A stretch of 64,000 nucleotides of DNA from Candidatus Iainarchaeum sp. (GCA_016187745.1 JACPJC010000006.1:1-64000), one strand, 5' to 3'; shown: positions 36,758 to 60,679, numbered from the stretch's first letter. Made by a program: numbers and translations. The notes: a model not told the origin generated them from the sequence alone.

Positions 36758-38191
36758 ATGCAAACCTATAATAAAATTTCAGAGGGGATTTATGAAATTC
36801 CCAAGGATGCAGGGATGAAACTTCCCGCGCGCATTTATGCTACAGAGAAGCTGCTGAATGCAATTGAGAATGGCGCAATTCAGCAGCTGAAGAATGTTGC
36901 CTCTCTCCCTGGAGTGCAGAAATATGCAATTGGGGAAGCGGACATGCACTGGGGCTATGGGTTTCCCATTGGCGGGGTGGCGGGGATGAGTGTTGATGGG
37001 GGAGTTGTAAGCCCTGGCGGAGTTGGTTTTGACGTAAACTGCGGCGTCAGGCTGATAAAAACAAACATGGTTCTTTCTGATGTTAAGGGAAAGCTGCGCG
37101 AACTGCTGGATGTGCTTTTCAGGGAGATTCCTTCAGGATTGGGAAGCAAGGGAAAGCTGCGCCTGCAATCCGGGGAGCTGCGCGAGGCAATTGAGCAGGG
37201 CGCAAAATGGGCCGTCGGGAAGGGCTATGGGGCTGAAAAAGATTTGCAGTGCATTGAGGAATACGGCTGCATGAAGCAGGCAGATTCGGCAAAAGTCAGC
37301 GCGAGCGCGCTGCAGAGGGGCATGCCCCAATTTGGAACGCTCGGGAGCGGAAATCACTTCCTTGAAATCCAGCTTGTGGACAAGATTTTTGATGCGGAAA
37401 CCGCAAAGGCATTCGGGCTGTTTGAGGACCAAATTGTTGTGATGCTGCATACCGGGAGCAGGGGCTTCGGCCACCAGGTTGCAACGGATTATATTGCAGT
37501 AACGGACAGGGCAATGCAGAAATACGGAATTTCAGTTCCCGACAGGCAATTGGCTTGCGCGCCGATAAATTCGGATGAGGGGCAGGCCTACTTTGCGGCA
37601 ATGTGCTGCGCAGTTAATTACGCGTTCTGCAACCGCCAGGTCATGACCCATTGGATAAGGGAGAGCTTTGCAAAAGTTTTGGGAAATCCCTGGGAGGATT
37701 TGGGGATGGGGCTGCTTTATGACATCTGCCACAATGTTGCGAAACTGGAGGAGCATGAGGTTGAAGGGAAAATGAAGGAATTGCTGGTGCATAGGAAGGG
37801 CGCAACGCGCGCATTCCCTGCGGGGAGAAAGGAAAATCCTGAAATTTATGCAAAAACAGGCCATCCCGCAATAATTCCCGGGAGCATGGGAACAGCAAGC
37901 TATATCTGCGTTGGAACGCAGAAGGGATTGCAGGAAACTTTCGGAAGCGTTGCGCATGGCGCCGGGAGGGTGATGAGCAGGACTTCCGCAACAAGGCAGA
38001 GGCGGGGGGAAGAGGTGAAAAAGGCGCTTGAGGAAAAGGGCGAATTTGTAAGGGGCGCATCTGCCGAGGGATTGGCGGAGGAAGCGCCTGAGGCATACAA
38101 GGACATTGATGAGGTTGCGCTTTCAATTGAGCTGAGCGGAATCGGGAAGAAAGTCAGCAGGCATGTTCCGCTTGCGGTAATGAAGGGGTAG
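36758..38191 (+). CDS. rtcB: RNA-splicing ligase RtcB
   Basis: D.H.GYGFPIG, GFDVNCG, GSGNHF, HNVAK, HRKGAT, HGAGR, EEAP.AYKD. Confidence 0.96.
   Translation: MQTYNKISEGIYEIPKDAGMKLPARIYATEKLLNAIENGAIQQLKNVASLPGVQKYAIGEADMHWGYGFPIGGVAGMSVDGGVVSPGGVGFDVNCGVRLIKTNMVLSDVKGKLRELLDVLFREIPSGLGSKGKLRLQSGELREAIEQGAKWAVGKGYGAEKDLQCIEEYGCMKQADSAKVSASALQRGMPQFGTLGSGNHFLEIQLVDKIFDAETAKAFGLFEDQIVVMLHTGSRGFGHQVATDYIAVTDRAMQKYGISVPDRQLACAPINSDEGQAYFAAMCCAVNYAFCNRQVMTHWIRESFAKVLGNPWEDLGMGLLYDICHNVAKLEEHEVEGKMKELLVHRKGATRAFPAGRKENPEIYAKTGHPAIIPGSMGTASYICVGTQKGLQETFGSVAHGAGRVMSRTSATRQRRGEEVKKALEEKGEFVRGASAEGLAEEAPEAYKDIDEVALSIELSGIGKKVSRHVPLAVMKG
38151..38187 (+). repeat. Direct repeat copy 1 (rtcB 3' end)
   Basis: aagtcagcaggcatgttccgcttgcGgtaatgaaggg; 36/37 identical to 38776-38812. 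Confidence 0.9.
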
Positions 38192-38250
38192 TTTTTTAAT
38201 GTCTATTGTCTATAATATACTATAGGAAGTTATAGAATAGGAGGATTATT

Positions 38251-38499
38251 ATGACTCATTTGACAACAATCCAATTGGACAAGTCTACAAAAAATCAGCT
38301 TGACAAGTTGAAGGAATACAAAAGAGAGACCTATGACGAGGTAGTGAAAAATCTGGTTGAGGTTGCTGAAATTCTAAAAAAAGAGCCCGAATTAAAAGAA
38401 GAAGTGTTGGAAGAAATTGCTGAAGCGAGAAAACATATCAGAATGGGCAAAGGACTGACAACTAAACAGCTAATTGCTGAGCTGGGCATAAAAATATGA
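38251..38499 (+). CDS. RelB-like antitoxin
   Basis: TTIQL...ETYDEVV...GKG...LG; homolog of 10907..11125. Confidence 0.8.
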   Translation: MTHLTTIQLDKSTKNQLDKLKEYKRETYDEVVKNLVEVAEILKKEPELKEEVLEEIAEARKHIRMGKGLTTKQLIAELGIKI

Positions 38500-38759
38500 C
38501 ATATTCTGTAATCTGGTCGCCCAAAAGCAAAGAGAAACTCGAGAAATTTGAAAAGGATGTTGCAGCAAGAATAATCAGGAAGGTTTCAGACATTAGTGAA
38601 AATCCTGAGCCGTATCTTATAAAACTTACTAATTCTGATGCATTTCGCTTAAGAGTCGGGGATTATAGGGTGGTCGTTGACCTGCTGAAAGACAAAAAAG
38701 AACTGCATGTAATTACTCTCGGGCACAGAAGAAACATTTACAAAGAGTTTGGTAGATAG
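38496..38759 (+). CDS. relE: RelE/ParE-family toxin
   Basis: FRLRVGDYRVV...GHRRNIY. Confidence 0.9.
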   Translation: MTYSVIWSPKSKEKLEKFEKDVAARIIRKVSDISENPEPYLIKLTNSDAFRLRVGDYRVVVDLLKDKKELHVITLGHRRNIYKEFGR

Positions 38760-38775
38760 AGATTATAATTGCAAG

Positions 38776-38812
38776 AAGTCAGCAGGCATGTTCCGCTTGC
38801 TGTAATGAAGGG
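38776..38812 (+). repeat. Direct repeat copy 2 (displaced rtcB 3' end)
   Basis: aagtcagcaggcatgttccgcttgcTgtaatgaaggg followed by ataa. Confidence 0.9.
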
Positions 38813-38817
38813 ATAAT

Positions 38818-39276
38818 GTGGATATAAAATATAAAGAAGTAGAAATAATTAGTGAATTTATTGATGCAATTAGACTTCGGGTTGATGTATTTATCATAGA
38901 ACAGGGTTTCAAGCCAGGATGGGAACCGGATGAAGATGATAAAATATCCAGACATTTTATAGCAATGGCTGATGATAAGGTTGTTGCAACAGCCAGATTC
39001 AGGGAAATTGGAAAAAGTGAAATAAAAATTGAAAGGATGGTGACAAAGAAAGAATATCGTGGGAAGGGTATTAGCAGAGGACTTGTTAAATTCATGATTG
39101 AAGAGATAAAAAAACTTAAACCCAAGAAAATATGGCTGAGAAGCCAGGTGCAATCGCAGCCATTTTATGAAAAATGCGGATTTAAAGCTGTTTCTGGGCC
39201 GTTCGATATGTGGGGGGTGCAACATATTGATCTGGAGTATCAAAGCAACAATTCACTAATTCACTATAAACCCTAA
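38818..39276 (+). CDS. GNAT acetyltransferase (ElaA/YjcF-like)
   Basis: LR..VF..EQG, KIER......RGKG, FYEKCGF, H.D. Confidence 0.88.
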   Translation: MDIKYKEVEIISEFIDAIRLRVDVFIIEQGFKPGWEPDEDDKISRHFIAMADDKVVATARFREIGKSEIKIERMVTKKEYRGKGISRGLVKFMIEEIKKLKPKKIWLRSQVQSQPFYEKCGFKAVSGPFDMWGVQHIDLEYQSNNSLIHYKP

Positions 39277-39317
39277 CATTTATATACACTAAGCGCTACA
39301 ATCTATTATTAGATATA

Positions 39318-41204
39318 ATGGCAGGATTTGGGGGAGTCAGGAAGTTTGGGCAGTATGGCGTGATTCTGCTAGTTCTGGTTCTGTTTGGCACTTACGCAAG
39401 CGCAGAGCCTTTCTGCGGGGAAGTAAGTTTTTCAGTTTATCCCATAAGCATAACCTCAGGAACATCAATTGACAGGACGTTTGCGCTGCAGAACAATTCT
39501 GCCGAGGGGTTTTACATTGATGATTTCAATGCCTATGACATTGATGCCGATTTTAATGTGATTAAATTGAGCAATGACTCTTATGCCGGCCCGAATGCAA
39601 CTGCAAGCTTATACATAAATATTTCCGCCTCTTCGGGGGTAAGCTCAAAAACCTCCAGCGCATATGCGAAAGTGAACGGGCATTTTGCCTCAGGGAAGGC
39701 TTGCGATTACAATGCGCTTGGGGAGAAGACCTTTGGAATTACAATTACAGGGGGAATTGTCGCAGTGGATGCGGAATGCACGAAAGTGAAAATTAGCGCG
39801 CATGCGGTAGGCATGGGAGAAAATTCTTCCGTTGCCGAAACATTCACCCTGCAGAACAATTCCTCGCAGAATTTCTATATTGATTCATTCATGGTTGATG
39901 AGAATTCAAATGATGTTTTTGCAATCGAGCAGGGATATGGGGATGTTGCAAATGCGAACGGGACAGCAGACCTGAGCCTGAAGGTTGAGTCCTATTCCAC
40001 AAGCGAAAACAAGACCGCAACAGCGTATGCGAAAGTCGCGGGGCATTTCACCTCCGGAACGCAGTGCAATTCAAATGCGATCGGGGAAACCGGCTTCAGC
40101 ATTTATGTTGCGGGAAGCGCAAGCACAAACTGCAATGATTTCCTGCTGTCAGTCCCTTCAGAAAAAAGGATGCTGAATTCTGCGGAAATTGGGATTGCCG
40201 CTGAAAATCCTACTCAGAGCTCAGCCACAATAACAATTTCAGGAGGCAATATCGGGGTGAATCAGAGCACCGTAAGCGTGCCTGCGGGGGAAACAATAAG
40301 CAAAACGCTCACGCTCAGCAATCTTGAGGGGGATGAGGCATGGCTTGCTTATGATGTTATATTGGAGAACTGCAATATCCCTTCAGGAATCACGCACATA
40401 GTGAAGGGCGCGGATTACGTTGAAGTTGCACATTACAATTCCGCAGTTGAGATTGAGGATGAGGCTAATGTGAAAGTGGAACTGAAAAACAATTCCCCGG
40501 ACGCAAAGCAGTTTGCGCTTGCAATAACAGGATTGCCCGCGGATTGGGAAGTGCAGTATCTGCAGGGCTCGCTGGAAGGGGAGGAAACGCGCGCAGTTGT
40601 TTTGGGGGTTAGGCAGAAGAATGCCGTTTTCGGGAATTCCTATGCCGCAAAGCTTGTCCTGAGCTATGATTCAGCGCAGGTTGAGAGGGATATTGAATTC
40701 AGCGCGATGCGCTCAGGGCAGATTGAGAATGCAAGCATACAGACAAGCGTTGTGCAGAAGGACGATGAAAAGGGCAGCTACGAGGTAAGTGTTGTAGTTG
40801 AAAATGGTTCAGCAAGCGGAATTTCAGGCGCAATAGAAATTGAAGTTCCGGGAAACTGGGAAGTGGAAGGCGCAAAGGAGATTGCTGTTCCCGCAGGAGG
40901 GGCCGCGCAGACAACACTGACTGTAATTCCTGACAAGGCGCAGAAGGCAGGGGAAATAGGAAGCGTCAGTTTTGTTGCGAGGGATGGGAGGAAACTTGAG
41001 GAATTTGTGAGCTTCACCCCAAAAGGGGTTGCGGCATCCGTAGCATTTGCGGCATTTGCAACAAATGCTGTGTTTTTCGGCTTCATTGCAATCATTGTAG
41101 TTGCAATCATCTTCGTTCACAGGGGCAGGATTTCAGGAACAAGGAGGGAAAGCGTGGAATGGCCCTATAATTGGGGGAAAGAAGCCGGAGAAAAACCTTT
41201 TTAA
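39318..41204 (+). CDS. Surface glycoprotein with Ig-like (NEW3-like) domains and C-terminal TM anchor
   Basis: Signal peptide; duplicated FxLQNNS...FYID.F...AYAKV.GHF.SG..C domain; many N-x-S/T; C-terminal TM. Confidence 0.8.
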   Translation: MAGFGGVRKFGQYGVILLVLVLFGTYASAEPFCGEVSFSVYPISITSGTSIDRTFALQNNSAEGFYIDDFNAYDIDADFNVIKLSNDSYAGPNATASLYINISASSGVSSKTSSAYAKVNGHFASGKACDYNALGEKTFGITITGGIVAVDAECTKVKISAHAVGMGENSSVAETFTLQNNSSQNFYIDSFMVDENSNDVFAIEQGYGDVANANGTADLSLKVESYSTSENKTATAYAKVAGHFTSGTQCNSNAIGETGFSIYVAGSASTNCNDFLLSVPSEKRMLNSAEIGIAAENPTQSSATITISGGNIGVNQSTVSVPAGETISKTLTLSNLEGDEAWLAYDVILENCNIPSGITHIVKGADYVEVAHYNSAVEIEDEANVKVELKNNSPDAKQFALAITGLPADWEVQYLQGSLEGEETRAVVLGVRQKNAVFGNSYAAKLVLSYDSAQVERDIEFSAMRSGQIENASIQTSVVQKDDEKGSYEVSVVVENGSASGISGAIEIEVPGNWEVEGAKEIAVPAGGAAQTTLTVIPDKAQKAGEIGSVSFVARDGRKLEEFVSFTPKGVAASVAFAAFATNAVFFGFIAIIVVAIIFVHRGRISGTRRESVEWPYNWGKEAGEKPF

Positions 41205-41315
41205 ACCCTTTTCATCGCTTATATTATATAATATTATTGTAAACTGTATCCCTCGCGAACCGCACGGGATATAACTACAAAAAACACACGTTTTTTGTTT
41301 TTGAAAATGCAGCAG

Positions 41316-41346
41316 GGAAGGTATCGGAAACGCAGTTTCTGATTGT
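41316..41346 (+). repeat. Dispersed 31-bp hairpin repeat (family B)
   Basis: ggaaggtatcggaaacgcagtttctgattgt is the exact reverse complement of 58951-58981. Confidence 0.85.
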
Positions 41347-41387
41347 GCTGTGCTGCAATGCAGTTTATATTAGCCTGGTGAATCTGA

Positions 41388-42506
41388 GTGACAAAGAAGC
41401 ATAAGCCAAGAAGCGGAAGCTTGCAATTCTACCCCAGAGTGCGCTCTGCAAAGCCTGTCGCAAATTTCACAACATTCCCGAAAATAACGGATGGCGCATC
41501 AAAGCCCATGAGCTTTTTCGGATACAAGGCCGGAATGCTGCATGTGATGGCGAAGGATTTGTATGACAAGTCCGCAACTTACGGGCATGAGCTGAGAATT
41601 CCCGCAACAATAGTTGAGGCGCCCCCCATGAAGGTTTTCGGAATCCGCGCATACGGGGATTCCTCAAAGGGAAAATATGCGCTTACTGAAATAATTGCCG
41701 AGAAATTTGACAAGCATCTGGGTAAGAGGATAAAAAACTTAAAGGGAAACGGCGATTTCGGGAAGATTGAAAAATTAAGGGACAGGGTTGTTGAAATAAG
41801 GCTTATTGCGCATGCGCAGCCGCACCTGACGGGAATAGGGAAAAAAATGCCCGAGGTAATGGAAATTGCGCTTTCGGGGGATGTGAATGCGCAGACGGAC
41901 TATGCTAAAAATATTCTGGGGAAAGAAATTTCAGCGAAGGATGTTTTTTCTGACAATGAGATTGTGGATGCGAGGGCCGTAACATTGGGAAAGGGATTCC
42001 AGGGCGTTGTGAAGCGCTTTGGTGTAAGAACATTGCGCAGAAAATCAAAGAAGGAAAGGATGGTTGGAAGCATAGGGCCATGGAACCCGAGCCTTGTGAT
42101 GTGGACCGTTGCCCGCGCTGGACAAATGGGCTATCACGCAAGGGCGGAATACAACAAGCGCATACTTAAGATTTTTGAGAATCCCGCGGAGCTGAATCCG
42201 AGCTCGGGGCTTGAGGGCTATGGGACATTGAGGGGCACTGCAATTCTTGTCGCCGGCTCGCTGCCGGGGCACATAAAAAGGATTGTCGCGCTGCGCAAGG
42301 CGATAAGGAAGCCGCACATTGAAAGGAAATTGAGCGAAATTACATTCATATCAACAAGGCCTGAAATTGCAAAAACTTCTGAAGAGGAAGCCGCAGTGCA
42401 TAAGGTAAGGGCTGAAAAGAAAGTTGAGAAGGAAGAGAAAAGCGTGAAGGATGAGATTGCAATGGCAGTAAAGGGGGAGAAGGAAAAGAAGGAAAAGGAG
42501 AAGTAA
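41388..42506 (+). CDS. rpl3: 50S ribosomal protein L3
   Basis: PR.GSL.FYPR.R, GYKAGM, GKGFQG.VKR.G, AGQMGYH. Confidence 0.97.
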   Translation: MTKKHKPRSGSLQFYPRVRSAKPVANFTTFPKITDGASKPMSFFGYKAGMLHVMAKDLYDKSATYGHELRIPATIVEAPPMKVFGIRAYGDSSKGKYALTEIIAEKFDKHLGKRIKNLKGNGDFGKIEKLRDRVVEIRLIAHAQPHLTGIGKKMPEVMEIALSGDVNAQTDYAKNILGKEISAKDVFSDNEIVDARAVTLGKGFQGVVKRFGVRTLRRKSKKERMVGSIGPWNPSLVMWTVARAGQMGYHARAEYNKRILKIFENPAELNPSSGLEGYGTLRGTAILVAGSLPGHIKRIVALRKAIRKPHIERKLSEITFISTRPEIAKTSEEEAAVHKVRAEKKVEKEEKSVKDEIAMAVKGEKEKKEKEK

Positions 42507-42524
42507 AAGCGGGAAATGATTTTT

Positions 42525-43346
42525 ATGAAAGAGGCTAACGTATTTTCAGTTTCTGGGGAAATGGCGCATTCCATAAAGCTGCCCGAGGTATTCAATGAGC
42601 CCTACCACCCTGAGCTTATAAAGCGCGCGGCGCTTTCCGCTATTTCAGCAAGATTCCAGCCCAAGGGGACATACCCCGATGCGGGAAGGGAAGTTGTTAC
42701 TGAATACAGGAGTCTGCGCTCTCTCCCTGCAATGGAGCGCACTATGAATGTTGACAAGGCGCGCAAGCCCAGGACAAAACACAGGCGCGGGCTGCTTGCG
42801 GGAGATGTTGCAGCAATCCCGGGAGTTGTTGGAGGCCCAAAATCACACCCCCCTAAGGCGATTAAAACACTCCATGAGAGGATAAATGAGAAGGAGAGAA
42901 GGCTTGCAATAAAAAGCGCCATTGCCGCATCATGCGACAGGAAGCTTGTAATTGCGCACGGCCATAAGATTTCCGAAGGGATTGAGCTCCCGATAATTAT
43001 TGAGAAGGGGATTGAGAAGCTGAAGAAAACAAATGAAGTGTGCAAAATGCTCAAGGCGCTTAAATTATGGCAGGATGTGGAGCGCGCGAAAAAGAAGAAG
43101 CTGCGCTCAGGCAAGGCAAAAAGGCGCGGAAGGAAATACGCAAGAAGGAAAAGCGCGCTCATTGTTGTTTCTGGCAGCAGGGAAGGAATTTACAGGGCCG
43201 CAAGGAACATCCCTGGAATTGATGTGATTGAGCTGCGCAATTTGAATGCGGAAGTTCTTGCTCCGGGCGCAAAGGCCGGAAGGCTTGTGATATGGTCCGA
43301 GAATGCAGTAAACGAACTTTCAGAAAAAGAAAAGGTAAGTGCTTAA
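42525..43346 (+). CDS. rpl4: 50S ribosomal protein L4
   Basis: LP.VF, HPP, IN.KE...A..SA, N.PG.D, LAPG...GRL. Confidence 0.95.
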   Translation: MKEANVFSVSGEMAHSIKLPEVFNEPYHPELIKRAALSAISARFQPKGTYPDAGREVVTEYRSLRSLPAMERTMNVDKARKPRTKHRRGLLAGDVAAIPGVVGGPKSHPPKAIKTLHERINEKERRLAIKSAIAASCDRKLVIAHGHKISEGIELPIIIEKGIEKLKKTNEVCKMLKALKLWQDVERAKKKKLRSGKAKRRGRKYARRKSALIVVSGSREGIYRAARNIPGIDVIELRNLNAEVLAPGAKAGRLVIWSENAVNELSEKEKVSA

Positions 43347-43347
43347 A

Positions 43348-43782
43348 ATGGCTGAAAAGAAAATCGCAAAGAAAGGGAAGGATGCTGAAAAGCAGAAGCC
43401 TGCGATTGCCAAGGCCGGGAAAAAGACAGCGGGGGAAAAGGCGGAAAAAAAAATTGAAAATGAAGCTGCGCAGAAGGAAAAGGCGCCGGAAAAACGCAGT
43501 TTTTCTGATATTGAGAAGGAGCTTAAGAATTTTGAAATAATTAAGTTCGCGCTCATAAGCGAGAAGGCAGTGAACATGATTGAAAGGGAAAACAAGCTGA
43601 CATTCATAGTGAACCAGAGTGCGGACAAGCCCTCAATAAAAAGGGCGATTGAGGAGATGCACAAGGTGAAGGTAGATTCCGTGAAGGTAATAAGGGACAG
43701 GAAAGGCAGAAAGAAGGCGATTGTAAAAATAGGAAAGGGCTTCAAGGCAAGCGATGTTGCAACAAGGCTGGGTGTGATATAG
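43348..43782 (+). CDS. rpl23: 50S ribosomal protein L23 (Lys-rich N-terminal extension)
   Basis: SEKA...IE.ENKL.F.V, KKA.V, A..LG.I. Confidence 0.93.
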   Translation: MAEKKIAKKGKDAEKQKPAIAKAGKKTAGEKAEKKIENEAAQKEKAPEKRSFSDIEKELKNFEIIKFALISEKAVNMIERENKLTFIVNQSADKPSIKRAIEEMHKVKVDSVKVIRDRKGRKKAIVKIGKGFKASDVATRLGVI

Positions 43783-43783
43783 C

Positions 43784-44503: not shown

Positions 44504-44509
44504 AGGCAA

Positions 44510-44917: not shown

Positions 44918-44929
44918 AGGGGAAGGAAA

Positions 44930-46152: not shown

Positions 46153-46153
46153 A

Positions 46154-46987: not shown

Positions 46988-46989
46988 AA

Positions 46990-47316
46990 ATGGCTGAAGA
47001 GCAAAAAAAGGAAGTTATCGGAAACGCAGTTTCTGATTGCAAGGATTTGAAATGCCCGGTTCACGGAAGCGTAAAAGTGAGGGGCAATATGTTTGAAGGA
47101 ATTGCAATAAGGGCAAAGGCGCCGAAAACAGTGATTGTTGAGCGCTATCTAATGCAGCATGTGAGGAAATACGAGAGATACAAGAAAGTTAGGTCGAGGA
47201 TTACGGCGCACAAGCCGGACTGCATTCAGGTTGCTATCGGGGATAAAGTGAGGATTGGCGAAACGCGCAAGCTCAGCAAGACAAAGAGCTTTGTGGTTAT
47301 GGAGGTGCTTAAGTAA
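46990..47316 (+). CDS. rps17: 30S ribosomal protein S17
   Basis: C.D.KCP.HG..K.RG, KYERY, ETR.LSKTK. Confidence 0.96.
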   Translation: MAEEQKKEVIGNAVSDCKDLKCPVHGSVKVRGNMFEGIAIRAKAPKTVIVERYLMQHVRKYERYKKVRSRITAHKPDCIQVAIGDKVRIGETRKLSKTKSFVVMEVLK

Positions 47317-50834: not shown

Positions 50835-50856
50835 GGATGCATAAGGGGAATTCAAA

Positions 50857-51285: not shown

Positions 51286-51296
51286 GGCGGGAAAAA

Positions 51297-52594: not shown

Positions 52595-53058
52595 AAATGT
52601 ACGCCGCAATAATGGTAAGGGGATTGATAGGCGCGAAAAAGGACGCAAAAATGGCGATGAGGCTTATGCGCCTGAACAAGCAGAACCACCTTGTGCTGCT
52701 GCCTGAAAATGATAGCAACAAGGGAACGCTCGAGAAGGTCCAGAGCTATGTTACCTATGGAAAGATTGCGAATGATGTGCTTGCAGGGCTTGTTGAAAAA
52801 TGGGCAAGGCTCATTGGAAATAAGAAAATTGATGCGGAGTTCCTGAAGAAAAACAAGTTCGGGAATTTCAATGAGCTTGCAAATGCTCTTATCGATGGGA
52901 AAACTTCGCTTGCGGAGCTGCAGATAAAGCCGGTGTTCAGGCTGCATGCGCCGAGCAAGGGGTATGAGAGAAAGGGCACAAAAAAGCCTTTTTCACTAGG
53001 GGGCGCGCTTGGCCCGAGGGAGAATGAAATAAACAAATTGATTATGAGGATGATTTAG
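52591..53058 (+). CDS. rpl30: 50S ribosomal protein L30
   Basis: VRG, LMRL, FRLH.P..G, GG.LG.R..IN.L..RM. Confidence 0.94.
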   Translation: MKMYAAIMVRGLIGAKKDAKMAMRLMRLNKQNHLVLLPENDSNKGTLEKVQSYVTYGKIANDVLAGLVEKWARLIGNKKIDAEFLKKNKFGNFNELANALIDGKTSLAELQIKPVFRLHAPSKGYERKGTKKPFSLGGALGPRENEINKLIMRMI

Positions 53059-53143
53059 AATGAAGGAAGGGAATCAGGATTAACCTAAAACTGAAGGGAA
53101 ACCTTGGTTTCCCTGCGGTTTGGATGAGGATGATTTAGAATGA
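53044..53143 (+). mobile_element. 60-bp hairpin insert (family A) flanked by a perfect 20-bp direct repeat
   Basis: atgaggatgatttagaatga at 53044-53063 and 53124-53143; insert homologous to 59069-59131. Confidence 0.7.
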
Positions 53144-53589
53144 CTGTGCGAAAAAGGAAAAGGAAAAACAAGCTGCGCGGTTCGCGCACTTTCGGAACCG
53201 GAAATACCAAGCATAAGCGCGGCTCAGGATGCAGGGGCGGAAAGGGAAGGGCCGGAAGCCACAAGCACAAGTATTCCAAATATTACGATACGTTTGGAGT
53301 AACGCTGAGGCTGAAGCCAAGGAAACTCAAGGGGAATGAAATGAACCTCTGGCAGGTTGATGAAAACATCGAAGGCTGGCTTTCCGGAAAAATGATTGAG
53401 AAGAGCGGCGACGCTTACGTAATTGACTGCAAAAAGCTCGGAATAAGGAAAATACTTTCAAAGGGGAATCTTGCAAGGAAAGTTATCCTGAGGAATGCGC
53501 AGCTAAGCGAAAAGGCAAGGGAAAAAATAATCGCATCAAAGGGAATCATTGAGGAAGCAGGGGAGAAAAAGGAGAAGGGTGAAAAATGA
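53140..53589 (+). CDS. rpl15: 50S ribosomal protein L15
   Basis: RGSRT.G.G..K..RG.G..GG.G.AG..KH. Confidence 0.95.
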   Translation: MTVRKRKRKNKLRGSRTFGTGNTKHKRGSGCRGGKGRAGSHKHKYSKYYDTFGVTLRLKPRKLKGNEMNLWQVDENIEGWLSGKMIEKSGDAYVIDCKKLGIRKILSKGNLARKVILRNAQLSEKAREKIIASKGIIEEAGEKKEKGEK

Positions 53590-54956
53590 GCATCCTTGAT
53601 GTTTTTGAGCCAATTTACAAGCTGCTTCCTGAGGTGAAGAGCCCGGAAGTAAAGCCGGCGCTTAAGCGCAGGCTCATGTGGAGTGCGCTGGCGCTCCTGC
53701 TGTTTTTCATAATGGGCAATATTACTGTCTATGGGATTGACCTTTCAAGAAGCCTGGGGGGCAATCTCGCGGCATTTGAGCTCATACTTGCAAGCAAGAT
53801 TGGAAGCCTTATAACTGTGGGAATAGGCCCGATAGTGCTCGCATCAATCATACTGCAGATGCTTGTGGGGGGCAAAATAATAAACATAGACCTTTCAAAC
53901 CCAAAGGACAGGGCGCGCTTCACGAGCATGCAGAAGCTGTTTGGGATCGTGCTTTGCTTCTTCGAGGCATTTGTATATTCCGCATTCGGGTTTTTGGTTC
54001 CAGATTCGGGAATGCTTCTGCCTGTAATCCTGCAGATAGCATTCGGCGCAATAATCCTGATATATCTGGATGAAGTTGTTTCAAAGTATGGAATAGGCTC
54101 TGGAATCGGATTGTTTATTGCAGGCGGAGTCGCAGGCTCAATAGGATGGCGCATTTTCGCCCCTTACCTTGTCACAAACGTTGGAATAGTTGAGGGCCTG
54201 CTGCTGCAGATTGTTGGGGAGGCGGTGAAGGGAAGCCTGCTCAATGCGTTTGTCCTGTCGGTTCCGATAATATTTGTGATTGTGATTTTTCTCGTGGTTG
54301 TTTTTGCGGAGGGAATGCACGTAAATATCCCGATTACCGTAGGGAGGAGCGGGGCGACATCGCGCTTCCCCGTGAAATTCCTCTATGTGAGCAACCTTCC
54401 AGTTATACTTGCAATGGCGCTGTATGCGAACCTGCAGATGTGGGCGATAGCGGGCGCAAATATCCCAATACTCGGAACAATGCTCGGCGCAGTAAGCTAT
54501 GCAACTGCAATCCCGAGGGTCGGGGGAACAGCGCTCTTTGAGGCGATTTTCCTGCAGGGGCTTTCGGGAATTGTGATTGCTGAAATCCTGCATGCGGTGC
54601 TTTATATTGCGGTCTTTGTTGTCATTTGCGTTGTTTTCGGAAAATTCTGGGTGGAGATGGCAGGGCAGGGGCCTGCGGCAATTTCAGAGCAATTGCAGAA
54701 AGCCGGAATGTCTATTCCTGGATTCAGGAAGGACCCGCGCATCATAAGGCAGATTTTGGATAGGTACATTCCGCCAATTACAATCCTTGGGAGCGCATTT
54801 GTTGCGCTGCTTGCGGGGCTTGCGGATTTGACCGGAGCACTTGGGAGCGGGACGGGAATACTTCTGACTGTTGGAATTGTTTACAGGCTTTATGAGGAAC
54901 TTGCAAGGGAGCAGCTCATGGAAATGCACCCGTTGCTTGGGAGACTTTTCAAATGA
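53586..54956 (+). CDS. secY: Preprotein translocase SecY
   Basis: GIGPIV.ASII.Q, SKYGIGSGIGLFI, YVSN.PVI, IPGFR, SGTGILL. Confidence 0.97.
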   Translation: MSILDVFEPIYKLLPEVKSPEVKPALKRRLMWSALALLLFFIMGNITVYGIDLSRSLGGNLAAFELILASKIGSLITVGIGPIVLASIILQMLVGGKIINIDLSNPKDRARFTSMQKLFGIVLCFFEAFVYSAFGFLVPDSGMLLPVILQIAFGAIILIYLDEVVSKYGIGSGIGLFIAGGVAGSIGWRIFAPYLVTNVGIVEGLLLQIVGEAVKGSLLNAFVLSVPIIFVIVIFLVVVFAEGMHVNIPITVGRSGATSRFPVKFLYVSNLPVILAMALYANLQMWAIAGANIPILGTMLGAVSYATAIPRVGGTALFEAIFLQGLSGIVIAEILHAVLYIAVFVVICVVFGKFWVEMAGQGPAAISEQLQKAGMSIPGFRKDPRIIRQILDRYIPPITILGSAFVALLAGLADLTGALGSGTGILLTVGIVYRLYEELAREQLMEMHPLLGRLFK

Positions 54957-54990
54957 CTAAGTGGAAGTTTGAGGAAACGGAGGGTTTCTG

Positions 54991-55485
54991 ATGTGGCAAC
55001 TGATAAATCCTACAATTGATATTCTGCTGATTTCAATAGGCATAGCTGCGGTATCGCAGCTGTTCCAGATGAAATTTACAGACAGGAAAAAAATGCGAGC
55101 AATGCAGAAGGAAATGAAGGACAAGCAGAAGAGAATGCGCGAGCTTGCGGGAAAAACCGATGCTAACGCGCTTGCGGAAATCAAGAAACTCGAGCAGGAG
55201 ATGATGCATGCGCTCAATGAGAGCATGAAGCACAGCATGGGCAGCATGATAAAGCTTATGCCGCTTACAGTAATTTTCCTGTTTGTTTACTGGCTGCTTG
55301 GCAGCGCCTATGGGAGCAGCGCGGTGCCAACGCTTTTCCCAATAAGCATAGTCAAGCCCGCAATGGGCTGGATATGGTGGTATGTGATATGCGTATTTAT
55401 AGCAAGCATTGTAATAAGCGCATTAACGAATGCTGTTGAGAACAGGATGGAATCAAAAGCGCAGGGAGTTGCAAAAAATGGTTGA
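54991..55485 (+). CDS. EMC3/TMCO1 (DUF106) family membrane insertase
   Basis: TM-coiled coil-TM-GWIWWY-TM; conserved position after secY. Confidence 0.88.
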   Translation: MWQLINPTIDILLISIGIAAVSQLFQMKFTDRKKMRAMQKEMKDKQKRMRELAGKTDANALAEIKKLEQEMMHALNESMKHSMGSMIKLMPLTVIFLFVYWLLGSAYGSSAVPTLFPISIVKPAMGWIWWYVICVFIASIVISALTNAVENRMESKAQGVAKNG

Positions 55486-55819
55486 ACCTAAGAAAAGGAA
55501 TATGAAAAGGCGCTATGTGAGGACCTCGGGCGGAGTGGTAAGGCTGCATTTCGGAAAGCGCAAGTCCTCAAAGCACGAATGCGCGCTTTGCGGAAGGACA
55601 ATGCACGGGATGCTCCACGGCTCGGGAATAAGCGAGGCGCATGATGCGGCAAAGACGGAAAAAAGGCCAAGCGCACTGCTCGCAGGCGCATTATGCAACA
55701 AATGCAGGGCAGTGGCAACAGAAGAGGCGATAAAAGTAAAGCACGGAATAAAGCCGATTGATGAGGTTGATCTGGGCTTCAGGAAATACGCTGAAATGAT
55801 AATGAAGAGGATTGAGTGA
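55478..55819 (+). CDS. rpl34e: 50S ribosomal protein L34e
   Basis: VRT.GG, CALCG..L/M.G, KRP....G.LC..C. Confidence 0.92.
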   Translation: MVEPKKRNMKRRYVRTSGGVVRLHFGKRKSSKHECALCGRTMHGMLHGSGISEAHDAAKTEKRPSALLAGALCNKCRAVATEEAIKVKHGIKPIDEVDLGFRKYAEMIMKRIE

Positions 55820-55821
55820 AT

Positions 55822-56298
55822 ATGATAGTAACAATATCGGGCCTGCCGGGAACGGATGCAAGGGAGATCTGCAAGCAGATAGCGCTTGAATTCAACCTGC
55901 AGTATGTTTCCCTTGAGCAGATAGGAAAGGGGATTGCGCTTCCGGGCAATGCCGCAAGGATTTCAGAAATGCTCAAGGCGGCAGTGCGCAGGAAAAACTG
56001 CATAGTGGAGCATGCGCTCGCGGGAATAATGCTCAGCAATGCGGATGCGAAGGTCTTCCTGCTTTCATTCAGGCTCAACAGGGCGAGGATGCTTTCCAAG
56101 CGCGAAAAAATAGAATTCGATGCCGCGCTCGGAAAAATCGAGGGCGAAGAGGAAATCCTGGGGAAAATCGCATCAGACGAACTTGGGATTGGAATGGACA
56201 GCCTTAATCCCTATGACCTTGTGCTTAACTCTGACAAAATCGGCAGCAATGATGCGGCGGAGCTAATAAAGAATTACATAAAGAGGGCCGTTGCATAA
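55822..56298 (+). CDS. cmk: Cytidylate kinase-like protein with degenerate P-loop
   Basis: IVTISGLPG, YDLVLNS; conserved L34e-cmk-L14e order; GKT replaced by DAR. Confidence 0.75.
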   Translation: MIVTISGLPGTDAREICKQIALEFNLQYVSLEQIGKGIALPGNAARISEMLKAAVRRKNCIVEHALAGIMLSNADAKVFLLSFRLNRARMLSKREKIEFDAALGKIEGEEEILGKIASDELGIGMDSLNPYDLVLNSDKIGSNDAAELIKNYIKRAVA

Positions 56299-56317
56299 AT
56301 TTTAGGGAGGGAAAAAA

Positions 56318-56539
56318 ATGCCTGCGCTTGAAGTTGGAAGAATCTGCGTGAAAACGCGCGGAAGGAATGCCGGAAAGAGGGTAGCAATAGTGGAAATGCA
56401 GAAGAATTTTGCGGTAATTGACGCGCCGAACATGAAGAGGAAGCGCTGCAACATCCTGCACCTGATTCCGCTTGAGGAGAAGATTGATGTGAACAAGGGC
56501 ACAAGCCATGAGGAAATTGCAAAAATTATGAAAAAATAG
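56318..56539 (+). CDS. rpl14e: 50S ribosomal protein L14e
   Basis: GRICVK..GR.AG, KRK.CN..HL. Confidence 0.94.
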   Translation: MPALEVGRICVKTRGRNAGKRVAIVEMQKNFAVIDAPNMKRKRCNILHLIPLEEKIDVNKGTSHEEIAKIMKK

Positions 56540-56569
56540 TGGAAAATAGTTTGTGTTTTTAAATAGAAT

Positions 56570-57133
56570 ATGGGGAAAATTAATATGGTTGAAGGAAAAA
56601 TTGCAGAAAATCCGGATGAAATCCGCTATATTGTCAGGATTGTCGGAAAGGACCTTAACGGCCTTTCCCCAATATGGCATGCGCTTCTTGGAATAAAGGG
56701 GATAGGGCAGAGAATGGCAATAATGATGGCAAGGGCATTTGAAAGCAGGACAGGAATCGGATATGATGCTAAGCTCGGGGAGATTCCAGAGGACAAGCAC
56801 AAGGTGCTTGAGGATATTGTGATGCACCCGGGGAATTATGGCATTCCCTCCTGGGCATTCAACAGGGGGAAGGATATTGAGAGCGGGAAAGACATGCATC
56901 TCGTAATGTCGGAGCTTGATTTTTCATTGCGCAATGACTTGCAGAGGCTGAGGGAAATAAAGACCTACAGGGGGATGAGGCACACCTGGGGGCTTCCGGT
57001 AAGGGGCGGAAAAACAAGGACAAGGGCAAGGAAGCGCGGCGTTTCCGTCGGAGTGGAGAAGAAGGCTGCAAAGGCCGCAATGGCCCCGAAGGCCGGGGAA
57101 AAGGCAGAGGCAAAAGAGGAAAAAAAGAAGTGA
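56570..57133 (+). CDS. rps13: 30S ribosomal protein S13
   Basis: IKGIG, P.W..NR.KD, YRG.RH..GLPVRG..T. Confidence 0.96.
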   Translation: MGKINMVEGKIAENPDEIRYIVRIVGKDLNGLSPIWHALLGIKGIGQRMAIMMARAFESRTGIGYDAKLGEIPEDKHKVLEDIVMHPGNYGIPSWAFNRGKDIESGKDMHLVMSELDFSLRNDLQRLREIKTYRGMRHTWGLPVRGGKTRTRARKRGVSVGVEKKAAKAAMAPKAGEKAEAKEEKKK

Positions 57134-57139
57134 TGAACA

Positions 57140-57748
57140 ATGGGCGATCCTAAAAGGGCCGAAAGGCAGTATGAAATTCCCAGGAAGCACTGGGATCTTG
57201 CCATAATAGAGAATGAGCGCAAGACCATGGAGACCTATGGCCTGAAAAACAAGCGCGAGCTGCACCACCTGCAGGCGATTGTAAAGACCAAAAGGCACAA
57301 TGCGAGAAGTTTGCTTGCGCTTTCCGCGGAACAGCGCGTGAAAAGGCAGTCCGAACTTCTTAAAAGCCTTGAGAGAATAGGATTGCTGCCGGAGCATGCT
57401 ACGCTTGATGATGTTTTGGTTCTTTCAATTGAGGAATTGCTCGAAAGGCGCCTCCAAACTGTAGTGTGGAGGAAAGGGCTTGCAAATACGATAGGGCAGG
57501 CAAGGCAGTTCATAGTGCACGGGCATATTGCGGTTAACGGCAGAAAAATTGACCGGCCGGGCTACATAGTTTCAAAAGGCGAGGAAGAAAAGGTCGCATA
57601 TTATGGGAAGCAAATGCAGCTTGCGGCAAAGGAAAAGGTTGAGGAAATTAAAAAAGGGCAGGATGCGGAGGCGCAGGGAACTGAGGAAGCGGAAGCCGCA
57701 TCGGGGGAAACTGCCGAAGAGGCAATAAATATGGAAGAGGCGTCTTAA
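57140..57748 (+). CDS. rps4: 30S ribosomal protein S4
   Basis: [28 protein letters not shown]. Confidence 0.96.
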
Positions 57749-57749
57749 A

Positions 57750-58142
57750 ATGAGCGATGAGGAAAAGCGCGGGATTCTGCACATATATGCGAGCCATAAC
57801 AACACGATTCTCCTGCTTACTGATGTGAGCGGCGCGGAAACAATTGCAAAATGCTCCGGGGGAATAGTTGTAAAGGCGCAGCACAAGGAGGCTTCTCCGT
57901 ATGCGGCAATGAAGGTTGCGGAGGTTGTTGCGGAGAAGGCAAGGGAGCGCGGAATCAGGTTCATTGATGTCAAGGTGAGGGCATCCGGAGGCACAAAGCT
58001 AAAATCCCCGGGTCCGGGGGCTGAAGCCGCAATCCGCTCGCTGACAAGGCAGGGGCTTATAATAAGGAACATTGAGAATGTAACTCCGATGCCGCATGAC
58101 GGGACAAGAAGGAAAAGGAAATACAGGAGCAAAAAAAAGTAA
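57750..58142 (+). CDS. rps11: 30S ribosomal protein S11
   Basis: S.NNT, SPYAAM, PGPGA..A.R, VTP.PHDG. Confidence 0.96.
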
Positions 58143-58196
58143 ATATTAATTTTTCCTGAAAGAAGGGAAATTAATAAGAAACCGGAGGTTTCTTAT

Positions 58197-58946
58197 ATGG
58201 ATGTAAAAAAAATTGCACAGAAGGAAAATACCCTTAAATTCCTTGTAAGGGGGGTAAATTCCGAATTTGCGAATTCCCTGCGCAGGGCAATAATGGCTGA
58301 TGTGCCCATACTTGCGATAGAGGATGTTTCAGTATATGAAAATTCCTCAATATTATATGATGAGTTCCTTACCCAGAGGCTTGCATTGATTCCATTGACA
58401 ACAGATTTGAAAACATACAAGAAGGGTGAATCCGCTAAAATGAGCATCGATAAGGAAGGGCCCTGCACGGTCTATTCAAAGGACATAAAATGCAGCGATC
58501 CGAAAATTGAGGTAGCGGACAAGCGCATTCCGATTGTCAAATTGCTGAAGGACCAGAAATTAAAGCTTGAGATGAAGGCAGTAATGGGCTTCGGGAAGGA
58601 GCATGCGAAATGGCAGCCTGCGGTTGTTTCCTACAGGCAGCTTGCAACAATAAGCATTGGGAAGGACTGCGACCTGTGCGGGAAATGCATTGAGAACTGC
58701 GCAAAGAAGCTTCTGGAGGCAAAGGCAAAGAAGATTGTCCTGGAAACGCCGATTGAATGCGATTTGTGCGGAAAATGCAGGGATGTGTGCAACCTGCAGC
58801 AGCTTGCGATAGAATACAGCAAGGATGATTTTTTGTTCACTGTGGAAAGCCACGGGGCCCTTGAGGCCTCTGAAATAGTGGAAAAGGCTGCGGAAATCCT
58901 GAAAGACAGGAATTCGGACTTCAGGAAGGAGATTAAAAAATTATAA
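58197..58946 (+). CDS. rpoD: RNA polymerase subunit D (Rpo3) with ferredoxin-like domain
   Basis: FAN.LRR, YDE...RL.LIP, G.G.EHAKW; two C-x2-C-x2-C-x3-C motifs. Confidence 0.96.
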   Translation: MDVKKIAQKENTLKFLVRGVNSEFANSLRRAIMADVPILAIEDVSVYENSSILYDEFLTQRLALIPLTTDLKTYKKGESAKMSIDKEGPCTVYSKDIKCSDPKIEVADKRIPIVKLLKDQKLKLEMKAVMGFGKEHAKWQPAVVSYRQLATISIGKDCDLCGKCIENCAKKLLEAKAKKIVLETPIECDLCGKCRDVCNLQQLAIEYSKDDFLFTVESHGALEASEIVEKAAEILKDRNSDFRKEIKKL

Positions 58947-59034
58947 CATTACAATCAGAAACTGCGTTTCCGATACCTTCCTTTGTTTCAAGGGAAACTC
59001 GGACGAGGAGATTAATAAATTATAACATTACAAT
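58927..59034 (+). mobile_element. 50-bp insert (contains family B hairpin, minus orientation) flanked by a 29-bp direct repeat of the rpoD 3' end
   Basis: aggagattaaWaaattataacattacaat at 58927-58955 and 59006-59034 (1 mismatch). Confidence 0.65.
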
Positions 59035-59055
59035 TATTATGGGAAAGCCCGGTGG

Positions 59056-59130
59056 AATCCTGAACCTTAAGGGAAAGGGTCAGGATTAGCCTAAAACTGG
59101 GGAAAACCGTAGGTTTTCCGCGGTTTGGAT
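59056..59130 (+). repeat. Two-hairpin element (family A), second copy, abutting tRNA-Leu
   Basis: AATCCTGA/TCAGGATT stem; AAACTG-GGAAAACC-GTA-GGTTTTCC-CGGTTT stem; homologous to 53064-53125. Confidence 0.75.
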
Positions 59131-59272
59131 GCAGGGGTACCCAAGCGGCCAAAGGGGCAGGTGAGTTTTGATTTGAAAAAAACAAAATTCTGCCAAACTT
59201 AAGGTCTCTTGAAAAAAGGATGGGAAATCCTGTGGCTTAGTGCCTTCAAGGGTTCAAATCCCTTCCCCTGCA
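59131..59272 (+). tRNA. tRNA-Leu(TAA) with two introns (59162-59196 at 30/31; 59204-59226 at 37/38)
   Basis: GCAGGGG/CCCCTGC; after removing both introns the anticodon arm reads CAGGA-CTTAAGA-TCCTG; long variable arm; both introns have BHB motifs; canonical rpoD-tRNA-Leu-L18e position. Confidence 0.88.
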
Positions 59273-59397
59273 CACCAATCCCTTTTCTTTTAGGAAAAGA
59301 AAAGATCTGGGTTTTACCCCAAAAGAAAATAAAAAATAAAATTCAGGGAAAGAGAAAATAATTTTCGGAAAAAAAATAAAAAATCGGGAATGAGAAA

Positions 59398-59766
59398 ATG
59401 AAAGTTACAGGGCCTACGGAACTCGGAACTCAGGTTCTTATAAGAAGGCTTGAGAAGCTCGGAAAAAGCAGCGGGCAGGCCATGTGGCTTGACCTTGCGG
59501 AAAGGCTGGGAAAGCCGCGCAGGATAAGGCCTTCGGTTAATTTGTGGAAGCTCGGGAAAATGGCAAAGAAATTCCCGGGAAAAACATTGCTTGTTCCGGG
59601 GAAGGTGCTTGGCTCGGGCTCGCTGGATTCCGCGCTTTCAATATGCGCGCTTGAATTTTCCGCTGGCGCAATGAAAAAAATCTCCGGGCACAAGGGAAAG
59701 GCGCTGACGCTGGATGAATTCGTAGGAAAGCCCGCAGATGCGAAGGACATTGCAATAATAAAGTGA
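59398..59766 (+). CDS. rpl18e: 50S ribosomal protein L18e
   Basis: W...A..L..P.R....VN..K, VPGKVLG.G, FS..A..KI. Confidence 0.95.
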   Translation: MKVTGPTELGTQVLIRRLEKLGKSSGQAMWLDLAERLGKPRRIRPSVNLWKLGKMAKKFPGKTLLVPGKVLGSGSLDSALSICALEFSAGAMKKISGHKGKALTLDEFVGKPADAKDIAIIK

Positions 59767-59771
59767 TTTTT

Positions 59772-60197
59772 ATGACAACAATAAATGCAGAAAACCTGAT
59801 TCTGGGAAAGCTTGCGACAAATGTTGCAAAGCGCCTTATTTCAGGGGAAACCATAGCCATTGCAAACGCGGAAAAATCCGTAATGCTCGGGACAAAAGAG
59901 GCAAAGGCATACAAGTTCAAGGTGAGGCTGGGAATCGCGTACAAGGGGATGCCTGAGCGCGGGCCGAAATACTCGAACAGGCCTGAAACCATAATGAGAT
60001 ATGCAATAAGGGGCATGCTGCCAATGGAAAGGGCCTCGGGGAGGGATGCATTCAGAAGGCTGAAGGTTTATTCAGGCCTGCCAATGGAGCTTAAGGACAG
60101 GAATTTAAAAACAGTTCCTGATGCAAAGTGTAAAAGCGACAGGTTTGTTTATCTGGAAGAGGTTTGCAAGCATCTGGGATATGAGGCGAAAGCATGA
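59772..60197 (+). CDS. rpl13: 50S ribosomal protein L13
   Basis: ILG.LA..VAK, NAE, IRGMLP, RL.VY.G.P. Confidence 0.95.
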   Translation: MTTINAENLILGKLATNVAKRLISGETIAIANAEKSVMLGTKEAKAYKFKVRLGIAYKGMPERGPKYSNRPETIMRYAIRGMLPMERASGRDAFRRLKVYSGLPMELKDRNLKTVPDAKCKSDRFVYLEEVCKHLGYEAKA

Positions 60198-60628
60198 GCG
60201 CGGAGCAGAAGGCATCAAAAAAGGCAAGGCGCAAGGGCGTTGTAACAAAGGCAAGGCGCAAGACCGCAATAGCGCACGCCATTCTCAGAAAGGGCACCGG
60301 GAAAATAAGGGTGAACAGGATGCTCCTTGGAATTGTGCAGCCAAGGTATGTGCAATTGCTCATAAAGGAGCCTATAACACTTGCGGGGGAGCTTGCAAAT
60401 GACATTGATGTTGATGTAAGCGTAAAGGGCTCGGGGCAGATGGCGCAGGCGGTTGCCGCGCGCGGAGCAATAGCAAAGGCGCTGGTCGCATACACCAATA
60501 GCCCTAAGCTTAAAAAGGAATTCCTGGATTACAACAGGATGCTTATTGTTGATGACATAAGGCAGACCGAGCCCAAGAAGCCTTTGGGAAAAGGCGCAAG
60601 GGCAAAGAAGCAGAAATCAAAGAGATGA
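60194..60628 (+). CDS. rps9: 30S ribosomal protein S9
   Basis: RKTA.A, G.G..RVN, D.R..EPKK..G.GAR.K.QKS.R. Confidence 0.96.
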   Translation: MSAEQKASKKARRKGVVTKARRKTAIAHAILRKGTGKIRVNRMLLGIVQPRYVQLLIKEPITLAGELANDIDVDVSVKGSGQMAQAVAARGAIAKALVAYTNSPKLKKEFLDYNRMLIVDDIRQTEPKKPLGKGARAKKQKSKR

Positions 60629-60679
60629 CAAACATGGGGTTAATAAGGGCATTATGCCATTATAGCAGAAATCAAAGAG
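60609..60679 (+). repeat. 16-bp direct repeat of the rps9 3' end flanking a short hairpin
   Basis: agcagaaatcaaagag at 60609-60624 and 60664-60679. Confidence 0.7.

Follow-up and report, generated by a model that had tools for sequence, protein, structure and literature searches.

A stretch of 64,000 nucleotides from Candidatus Iainarchaeum sp. (GCA_016187745.1, JACPJC010000006.1:1-64000; the whole of it is called the window below) raises the question of how the 3' ends of four conserved genes, rtcB, rpoD and the ribosomal-protein genes L30 and rps9, came to be directly repeated on either side of extra DNA. A preliminary description of this sequence had proposed that a single, new kind of miniature element inserts at the ends of genes. 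We find that the duplications exceed chance, recur in two distant relatives and enclose inserts of several unlike kinds. Our tentative preference is for errors of host-level copying or repair, filtered by selection.

Anatomy of the duplicated gene ends

All four direct repeats of the preliminary description could be read directly in the window: 37 nt at rtcB, 20 nt at L30, 29 nt at rpoD and 16 nt at rps9, with the gene identities at these sites verified by Pfam. Each site has an in-gene copy of the gene end, an insert and an orphan copy (X-insert-X), all on the plus strand:

38151-38191, +: rtcB 3' end, in-gene copy, ending ggg TAG
38192-38775, +: rtcB insert of 584 nt, with an AT-rich promoter-like leader, relB and a relE/parE-type toxin gene; GC 0.358, against 0.524 for rtcB
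38776-38816, +: orphan rtcB end, ending gga TAA; the GNAT gene starts with GTG at 38818
53044-53063, +: L30 end plus 5 nt, in-gene copy; stop TAG at 53056-53058
53064-53123, +: L30/L15 insert of 60 nt, a 5'-shortened copy of the two-hairpin element at 59041-59130
53124-53143, +: orphan L30 end, holding the ribosome-binding region and start (ATG 53140) of L15
58909-58955, +: rpoD end plus 9 nt, in-gene copy; stop TAA at 58944-58946; core 58927-58955, probable extension from 58909
58956-58993, +: rpoD insert; 58952-58988 is the reverse complement of rps17 47003-47039, with CAAT shared at the left junction
58994-59034, +: orphan rpoD end, decayed; reads GNSD--EEINKL* against RNSDFRKEIKKL* in the gene
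60609-60628, +: rps9 end, in-gene copy, aga TGA
60629-60663, +: rps9 insert, with a small hairpin GGCAT-t-ATGCC (fold z = 0.03, not significant)
60664-60683, +: orphan rps9 end, agg TAA

The rtcB copies (38151-38187 and 38776-38812) are identical in 36 of 37 nt and bracket 38192-38775; the in-gene copy runs on with g-TAG and the orphan with a-TAA. At L30/L15 the copies (53044-53063 and 53124-53143) agree in 20/20 nt around an insert of 60 nt, and at rps9 (60609-60624 and 60664-60679) in 16/16 nt around one of 39 nt, after which the gene reads a-TGA and the orphan g-TAA. The rpoD repeat (58927-58955 and 59006-59034; 28/29 nt, 50-nt insert) probably extends leftward to 58909 and 58994 over an in-frame 6-nt gap, leaving an insert of 38 nt.

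For comparison we used ~20 kb of sequence at each of 12 relative loci found by an L19e search. The window is from a DPANN archaeon, and its nearest fetched relatives are metagenome-assembled genomes (MAGs) of Iainarchaeota/Diapherotrites, the type to which most of the relative records belong. They are distant: the closest is 51% identical in L19e, and mean protein identity to the window over the cluster genes is 43-53%.

A repeat scan, of the kind that the preliminary description had put forward as a check, showed that the repeats exceed both shuffled sequence and gene-internal controls. Local direct repeats in the window (spacing 12-1000 nt) include nine events with a score of at least 16, four of them straddling a stop codon, against a maximum of 14 in 30 block shuffles; the four gene-end repeats score 16-34. 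Over the window and the 12 loci, scores of at least 16 were reached at 12 of 375 annotated gene ends, one of them an artefact, and at 3 of 691 gene-internal controls. With the artefact dropped, Fisher's test gives p = 0.001 for the full set and 3e-4 when the window is taken by itself.

X-insert-X was found at 5 of 32 gene ends in relative L004 (S19, SUI1, L32e, EMC3, L13) and at 2 of 36 in relative L006 (L3, L4), where L32e is a weaker case; it was found at none of the 228 gene ends in nine other relative loci. Recurrence in two of 12 distant relatives indicates that the arrangement is biological and lineage-wide. The earlier statements that the duplications are longer than ordinary insertion sequence (IS) target duplications, and that the insertions recur, are borne out, the latter also in two other genomes. 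A search for copies of the inserts across genomes led us to reject that idea, each insert family being restricted to its own genome. At 9791-9990 of L004 the L32e gene end occurs four times in succession, with a spacing of 47-75 nt and related spacers; this array is apparently an X-insert-X unit amplified through unequal exchange.

In a further relative, L003, exact duplications of 54-55 nt (16166-16365 and 18156-18365) surround runs of N. We rejected these as scaffolding artefacts and left them out of the counts; such overlaps call for caution in automated scans for X-insert-X. Together with the fact that all records are metagenome assemblies, they raise the suspicion that the other cases are assembly or amplification artefacts as well, which we regard as extremely unlikely. 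The window structures are real sequence with no N and total 71-108 nt, at or below about the read or final k-mer length as inferred from the contig name ('k141_') of L004. Natural structures total 65-140 nt. Three genomes that were assembled independently of one another contain them, element families and compensatory changes included, and the exact RelE protein of the rtcB insert is on record for 9 contigs.

The duplications of the 12 cases measure 15, 16, 16, 16, 17, 20, 21, 27, 29 (probably ~45), 33, 37 and 47 nt, with no mode. When mismatches in the stop codon are allowed, every duplicated segment reaches the stop, and most extend 1-10 nt past it. In no fewer than 6 of 12 cases the stop of the upstream gene overlaps the start that follows it or is separated from it by at most 3 nt:

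SUI1/p29 in L004: 8-nt overlap
L13/S9 in L004 and L32e/L19e in L006: ATGA overlaps
L30/L15 in the window: TAG-a-ATG
L4/L23 in L006: TAAATG
rtcB/GNAT in the window: TAA-t-GTG

The only clearly expanded junctions in the operon run of the window are the insertion sites, L30-L15 (81 nt) and S9-rpoN (72 nt).

Simple tandem duplication was rejected, the sequences after the first and second copies being unlike each other. A two-step origin is also improbable: slipped-strand tandem duplication of the junction would make a neutral gap, into which a small element lands later. Tandem duplications do occur here (the 27-nt period inside rps9 at 60220-60262, 30003-30089, and the four-copy L32e-end array of L004), and in L006 a small hairpin element with 10-11-nt inverted ends is nested in another insert. 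Against this, no plain X-X tandem without an insert was seen at junctions among the 375 gene ends, compared with 11 X-insert-X cases, and the insert lies always exactly between the copies, which would be rare for a second independent event. The rps9 duplication is in frame, in the 5' part of the gene (AAAGGCAAGGCGCAAG twice). The AT-rich tandem or near-tandem duplications at 30003-30089 (EF1a-S10 spacer, 43-nt spacing) and 59331-59399 (upstream of L18e, 40-nt spacing) may be duplicated promoter or terminator regions.

The downstream copies at rtcB and rps9 had been described as keeping a synonymous last codon plus stop. This is real at those two sites, but over the 12 cases synonymous and non-synonymous changes are mixed. 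Third-position synonymous and stop-to-stop changes separate the copies at rtcB, rps9, L006 L3 and L006 L4; the rpoD, L004 EMC3 and L004 L32e pairs differ non-synonymously. Three RpoD relatives of 89-95% identity all end in NSDF(R/K)KEIKK(L/I), the in-gene version. Since the closest relatives carry this ending, the downstream rpoD copy is a decaying orphan, and its ending matches none of eight aligned relatives. The view that both copies evolved as coding ends, which we first favoured for the synonymous differences, was dropped after the 12 cases had been tabulated and the RpoD relatives compared. A hand count of in-gene to orphan changes gave 16 from GC to AT and 8 from AT to GC (p = 0.15, not significant).

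The same differences bear on a homology-driven or att-like integration, in which incoming DNA would have brought the gene end of a related donor, so that the two copies are donor and recipient alleles. Some integrative elements are known to leave a second copy of a gene's 3' end (attL/attR), the gene being one for a tRNA or a protein, and this flanking copy keeps the gene intact. The four pairs with synonymous and stop-to-stop differences fit such an origin, as does the foreign-looking GC content of the relBE insert, but the three non-synonymous pairs and the unmatched rpoD orphan do not. Att integration depends on an integrase, with a tyrosine or serine recombinase lying adjacent, and on a single core sequence. 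In the present cases the repeat differs from site to site, comparison of the repeats revealed no common core, and no integrase or other recombinase domain was found among the window ORFs scanned. Circles or fragments of 60-130 nt with gene ends also seem implausible vehicles. We consider this origin very unlikely.

The preliminary statement that the 64 kb contain no transposase or integrase holds for the open reading frames (ORFs) scanned. Searches of 87 window ORFs with Pfam, and of 18 with NCBIfam (15 without Pfam annotation and 3 others), found no transposase, integrase, recombinase, reverse transcriptase, Cas1 or other cas gene; 12 ORFs matched no family in either database. The missing enzyme is weak evidence, as its coding site may be elsewhere in the genome.

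Sources of the inserted DNA

The preliminary description had found homologs of two inserts elsewhere in the window, and we find the same: the rpoD insert matches 41316-41346 (31/31) and 47003-47039 (35/37 nt, from 58952-58988), both inverted, and the L30/L15 insert matches 59080-59131. Thus two of the four gene-end inserts of the window, and in addition an insert upstream of L3, are identical or nearly identical to another site. The features concerned are:

47003-47039, +: donor segment, rps17 codons 5-17 (start ATG 46990), just upstream of a conserved C-x4-CP-x-HG motif
41313-41356, +: insert upstream of L3, 44 nt, with a strong hairpin (fold z = -4.75)
59041-59130, +: two-hairpin element, 90 nt, between a promoter-like stretch and a tRNA
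59131-59273, +: intron-containing class II tRNA, probably Leu, from its likeness to the L006 and L004 copies; context only, not an insertion

Judged by sequence comparison, rps17 is the native source of the segment in the rpoD insert, because the adjacent C-x4-CP-x-HG motif is conserved in relatives L004 and L008. A third copy (41316-41346) lies in the pre-L3 insert, in the same sense as rps17. The rpoD and pre-L3 copies have two differences from rps17 in common, which indicates that one was derived from the other. The pre-L3 insert is bounded by a 7-nt direct repeat, AATGCAG (41306-41312 and 41357-41363), and the promoter-like TATA of L3 (41364-41372) follows immediately. The flanking duplication of the rps17-derived segment is therefore 29 nt at rpoD and 7 nt upstream of L3.

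We rejected the idea that the 3' region of rpoD acts as a conserved antisense regulator of rps17: the complementarity score is 31 in the window and at most 9 in 8 other loci, so that there is no conservation at this depth. In this genome it is a possibility that the rps17-antisense insert pairs with rps17 mRNA and with the same-sense copy upstream of L3. Comparison with L004 suggests that the last rpoD codons probably serve as the TATA box or promoter of the downstream tRNA. Elsewhere in the cluster, L29 (46232-46253) and L5 (49069-49090) have an exact identity of 22 nt, in frame in both (LAKEKAL). L5 homologs read AKDN-L where the L5 of this genome reads AKEKAL, like its L29; this suggests an ectopic patch copied from L29 into L5, within the same gene cluster.

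The L30/L15 insert corresponds to the 3' ~57 nt of the two-hairpin element. Both end at the same base (GCGGTTTGG), and their 5' extents differ. The hairpin GGGAAACC/GGTTTCCC of the insert reads GGAAAACC/GGTTTTCC in the other copy, one base pair having changed on both strands in a compensatory manner, and the fold of 59049-59133, which overlaps the element, has z = -5.1. The insert ends where the 5' leader of the tRNA would be expected to end after RNase P cleavage. In L004 the sequence 'acattattat' directly abuts the same tRNA, whereas in the window 'acaattattat' is split from it by the element. The element-free arrangement in L004 implies that the 59041-59130 element is itself an insertion. 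It is flanked by a duplication of at most 2 nt at the tRNA site, compared with 20 nt at L30/L15.

Known RNA families were rejected as the identity of the inserts. A search of them with the covariance models of Rfam 15 at E-values up to 1 returned a weak tRNA-clan match on the tRNA itself and otherwise chance-level matches only. This tRNA has a long intervening sequence, possibly two introns, and was missed by ARAGORN and by Rfam at the gathering score, the weak clan match appearing at a relaxed threshold. Another intron-containing tRNA, at 6002-6125, scores 50.8 bits with Rfam and was also missed by ARAGORN.

The rtcB insert is a minimal cassette with its own AT-rich leader. According to Pfam it encodes relB (38251-38499, DUF7557) and relE (38496-38759, ParE_toxin), and its GC content looks foreign. 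The best database match to RelE, its own entry aside, is 52% identical, as against 89-95% for three relatives of RpoD, a contrast that may serve as a weak stand-in for an empty-site comparison. No donor was found in the window beyond a weak 25-nt match (92%), which is the only stretch that relE has in common with the relE of a second RelB/RelE-type pair. That second pair (10907-11374) lies beside tRNA-Asp and has no flanking gene-end duplication. The GNAT gene stretch that follows the cassette (38818-41204) has a GC content of 0.359, like the relBE insert and far below rtcB, and GC is low (0.41) over 38-40 kb as a whole; the entire rtcB-to-L3 stretch may be of different origin.

No homolog of the rps9 insert was found in the window, and no donor for the L004 inserts, which are A-rich and unstructured on folding. 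In L006, three junction inserts have in common a segment ending in a hairpin, which reads CGCGTG/CACGCG or CGCCTG/CAGGCG, again a compensatory change. The L4/L23 insert has only 27 nt in common with the other copies; its 5' part is unrelated, so it is not a simple truncation. L006 also contains a short element that forms a hairpin and has inverted ends of 10-11 nt (ACAAATTGGC...GCCAATTTGT) at 9921-9972 and ~17860-17907, one copy of it nested in another junction insert, with a duplication of at most 2 nt. This is a separate family resembling MITEs (miniature transposable elements with inverted repeats).

Two inserts are traversed by reading frames. At 9861-9986 of L006 the duplicated L19e start opens a 45-codon frame that runs through the whole insert and ends 5 nt before the true L19e start; a similar 20-codon frame in the window (60635-60697) stops 3 nt short of rpoN. 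Translation of neighbouring genes may stay coupled by way of such frames.

The setting of all four window sites, at 36.7-62.6 kb, comprises by Pfam rtcB, the relB/relE-type pair, the GNAT acetyltransferase and a 628-aa surface-type protein, then the archaeal ribosomal-protein clusters from L3 to L15-SecY and S13-S4-S11-rpoD-(tRNA)-L18e-L13-S9-rpoN-S2.

Copying errors or mobile elements

With some hesitation, we favour the view that the insertions were left behind when the host's own copying or repair went wrong, by template switching or capture of filler DNA, with selection keeping those duplications that span a junction, and that they do not represent one mobile-element family. While DNA is being replicated or a break repaired, the growing end would leave the operon at a gene junction and copy 30-600 nt from another template. 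That template could lie elsewhere in the same gene cluster and be read in either orientation, or it could be a repeat rich in hairpins or a piece of foreign DNA, for example a toxin-antitoxin cassette. Afterwards the end would re-anneal to the original template 15-47 nt upstream of its exit point, giving X-insert-X. A long staggered break that is filled in and captures filler DNA would be an equivalent route. The genes abut or overlap (0-20 nt from stop to next start), and selection would retain only duplications that span the junction: the first copy would keep the upstream gene whole, and the second would keep the start signals of the downstream gene and then decay. The sequences themselves show how the sites are built, that they recur, where the known donors lie and that the duplications vary in length; the template-switch step is inferred, and the template may have been either DNA or RNA.

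The position at gene ends would thus be a matter of survivorship, since in a packed operon only a duplication spanning stop and start leaves both genes intact. We prefer a host-level process over a single transposase-driven family because the inserts are heterogeneous, a native coding donor was used in both orientations, and there are microhomologies; the L29/L5 patch of 22 nt, the variable duplication length, the lack of inverted termini and the lack of a recombinase among the 87 ORFs point the same way. Where the donor is known, the junction microhomologies are CAAT (4 nt) at rpoD and ATG (3 nt) at L30/L15; these two junctions are too few to separate from chance.

The claim of one new miniature-element family aimed at gene termini was not sustained. 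The inserts are heterogeneous and lack inverted termini, and the duplication around one and the same element is 20 nt long at L30/L15 but no longer than 2 nt at the tRNA. As tests for MITEs, shared terminal inverted repeats were found at none of the insert ends except in the nested L006 hairpin element, and a fixed duplication length per element was not observed (15-47 nt across sites; 20 against at most 2 nt; 29 against 7 nt).

Several observations weigh against a host copying error. Copies of the hairpin elements, both the window element and the three copies in L006, have a common 3' end and variable 5' extents; compensatory changes keep the hairpins paired in both genomes; and the five copies of the two elements are all in one orientation. 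Such features would be expected of a dedicated mobilisation that recognises one end. Of the 4 window inserts just 2 have an identified donor, and of those in L004 none has, and a search for templating within 1 kb, by snap-back or locally, gave no match beyond shuffles. At 584 nt, the cassette exceeds what would be expected of a patch made by template switching. Four pairs have TGA or TAG as the stop within the gene but TAA in the orphan, with the first mismatch at the junction. This pattern is not fully explained; imperfect microhomology at the switch point and selection for an immediate stop may account for it.

The common 3' ends (53064-53123 against 59041-59130, and the three L006 copies), the paired hairpins, the single orientation, and the L30/L15 insert ending at the predicted RNase P-cleaved leader end all favour a less likely but still appreciable alternative, namely non-autonomous elements that rely on a dedicated enzyme acting in trans, encoded outside the window, whose staggered cuts are long and variable. 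This could be a transposase resembling those of IS1634/IS1549, or the elements could spread by target-primed copying that begins at the 3' end of a small hairpin RNA or DNA, in the manner of long and short interspersed elements (LINEs and SINEs). An enzyme of this kind would have to accommodate inserts that lack inverted termini and are wholly unlike between sites, one of them a copy of native coding sequence and those of L004 unstructured, as well as the L006 L4/L23 copy, which departs from the others beyond 27 nt. Its absence from the window ORFs counts only weakly, for the reason given above.

IS1634/IS1549 resemble the present case in their long and variable target duplications: PMC2266710 reports direct repeats of 8-514 bp (15-47 nt here) with no mechanistic model, and a family frequent in Euryarchaeota. 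These elements are 1.5-2 kb long, with a DDE transposase and terminal inverted repeats, whereas our inserts are 33-113 nt or a toxin-antitoxin cassette, and the C-----YT termini of IS1634 are absent from them.

Target-primed insertion of non-long-terminal-repeat (non-LTR) retrotransposons and SINEs produces variable target duplications, a common 3' end and 5' shortening. To our knowledge, target-primed retrotransposition has not been reported in archaea. Here the window ORF scans found no reverse transcriptase, there is no A-tail, and each family has 2-3 copies. It is nonetheless conceivable, if unlikely, that Iainarchaeota-like DPANN archaea have a dedicated, SINE-like and target-primed process that copies small hairpin RNAs or DNAs from the 3' end into nicked targets and so remodels essential operons. 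An example would be the 5' leader that RNase P releases from the tRNA at 59131; the final ~57 nt of this leader recur between L30 and L15. If true, such a 3'-anchored process would give 5'-shortened copies with long, variable target duplications.

Other known systems fit less well. Repetitive extragenic palindromic (REP) sequences number in the hundreds, with a head that is conserved among the copies, and are not known to make long target duplications. The present elements show long duplications and no such head in hundreds of copies. They do resemble REPs and bacterial interspersed mosaic elements (BIMEs), which are moved by HUH transposases (REP-associated tyrosine transposases, RAYTs), in being small hairpin repeats between operon genes (PMC2817692). 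Off-target CRISPR integration was rejected. Spacer integration by Cas1-Cas2 yields a constant, repeat-like duplication and an insert of spacer length, and here the duplications are 15-47 nt, the inserts 33-584 nt, and no cas gene was found in the window ORF scans. In translational bypass (T4 gene 60; 'byps' of yeast mitochondria), a short hairpin insert separates two matching codons, and a stop follows the first of them immediately; the second copy here ends in a stop at once, so bypass would gain nothing. Archaeal bulge-helix-bulge mRNA introns (two 3-nt bulges, 4-bp helix, in register with splice points whose use would give back the sequence without the insert) were also rejected, our own script finding them in 0 of 11 cases.

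The closest parallel to a host copying error is template switching, including SPDIR (double illegitimate recombination in short patches). It gives short inserts copied ectopically in either orientation, with junction microhomology, very variable size and no element-encoded enzyme (PMC8421209, 10.1101/2023.11.22.568220 and 10.1101/2024.07.02.601687). The present cases differ in that every surviving event has a flanking duplication of 15-47 nt at a stop/start junction of essential genes, that some donors are multi-copy hairpin repeats, and that one insert is a gene cassette of 584 nt. In the literature searched we found no description of a SPDIR-like process in archaea, nor of the gene-end duplication pattern. 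The pattern belongs with known insertion-with-duplication processes, as a variant not described in archaea in that literature.

Significance for compact archaeal genomes

Few stretches of DNA are as conserved and as compact as the operons for ribosomal proteins, and here they contain fresh insertions in three separate genomes, each made harmless by a duplication of the junction. If a host copying error is responsible, reduced archaeal genomes would gain spacers, hairpins, internal promoters and toxin-antitoxin cassettes in essential operons without a transposase, and the insertions would show a route by which overlapping genes uncouple. If a dedicated mechanism is at work, archaea would have a form of mobility that is new for them. 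Either way, the orphan gene ends are datable scars, and with their help events of this sort could be quantified in metagenome-assembled genomes at large.

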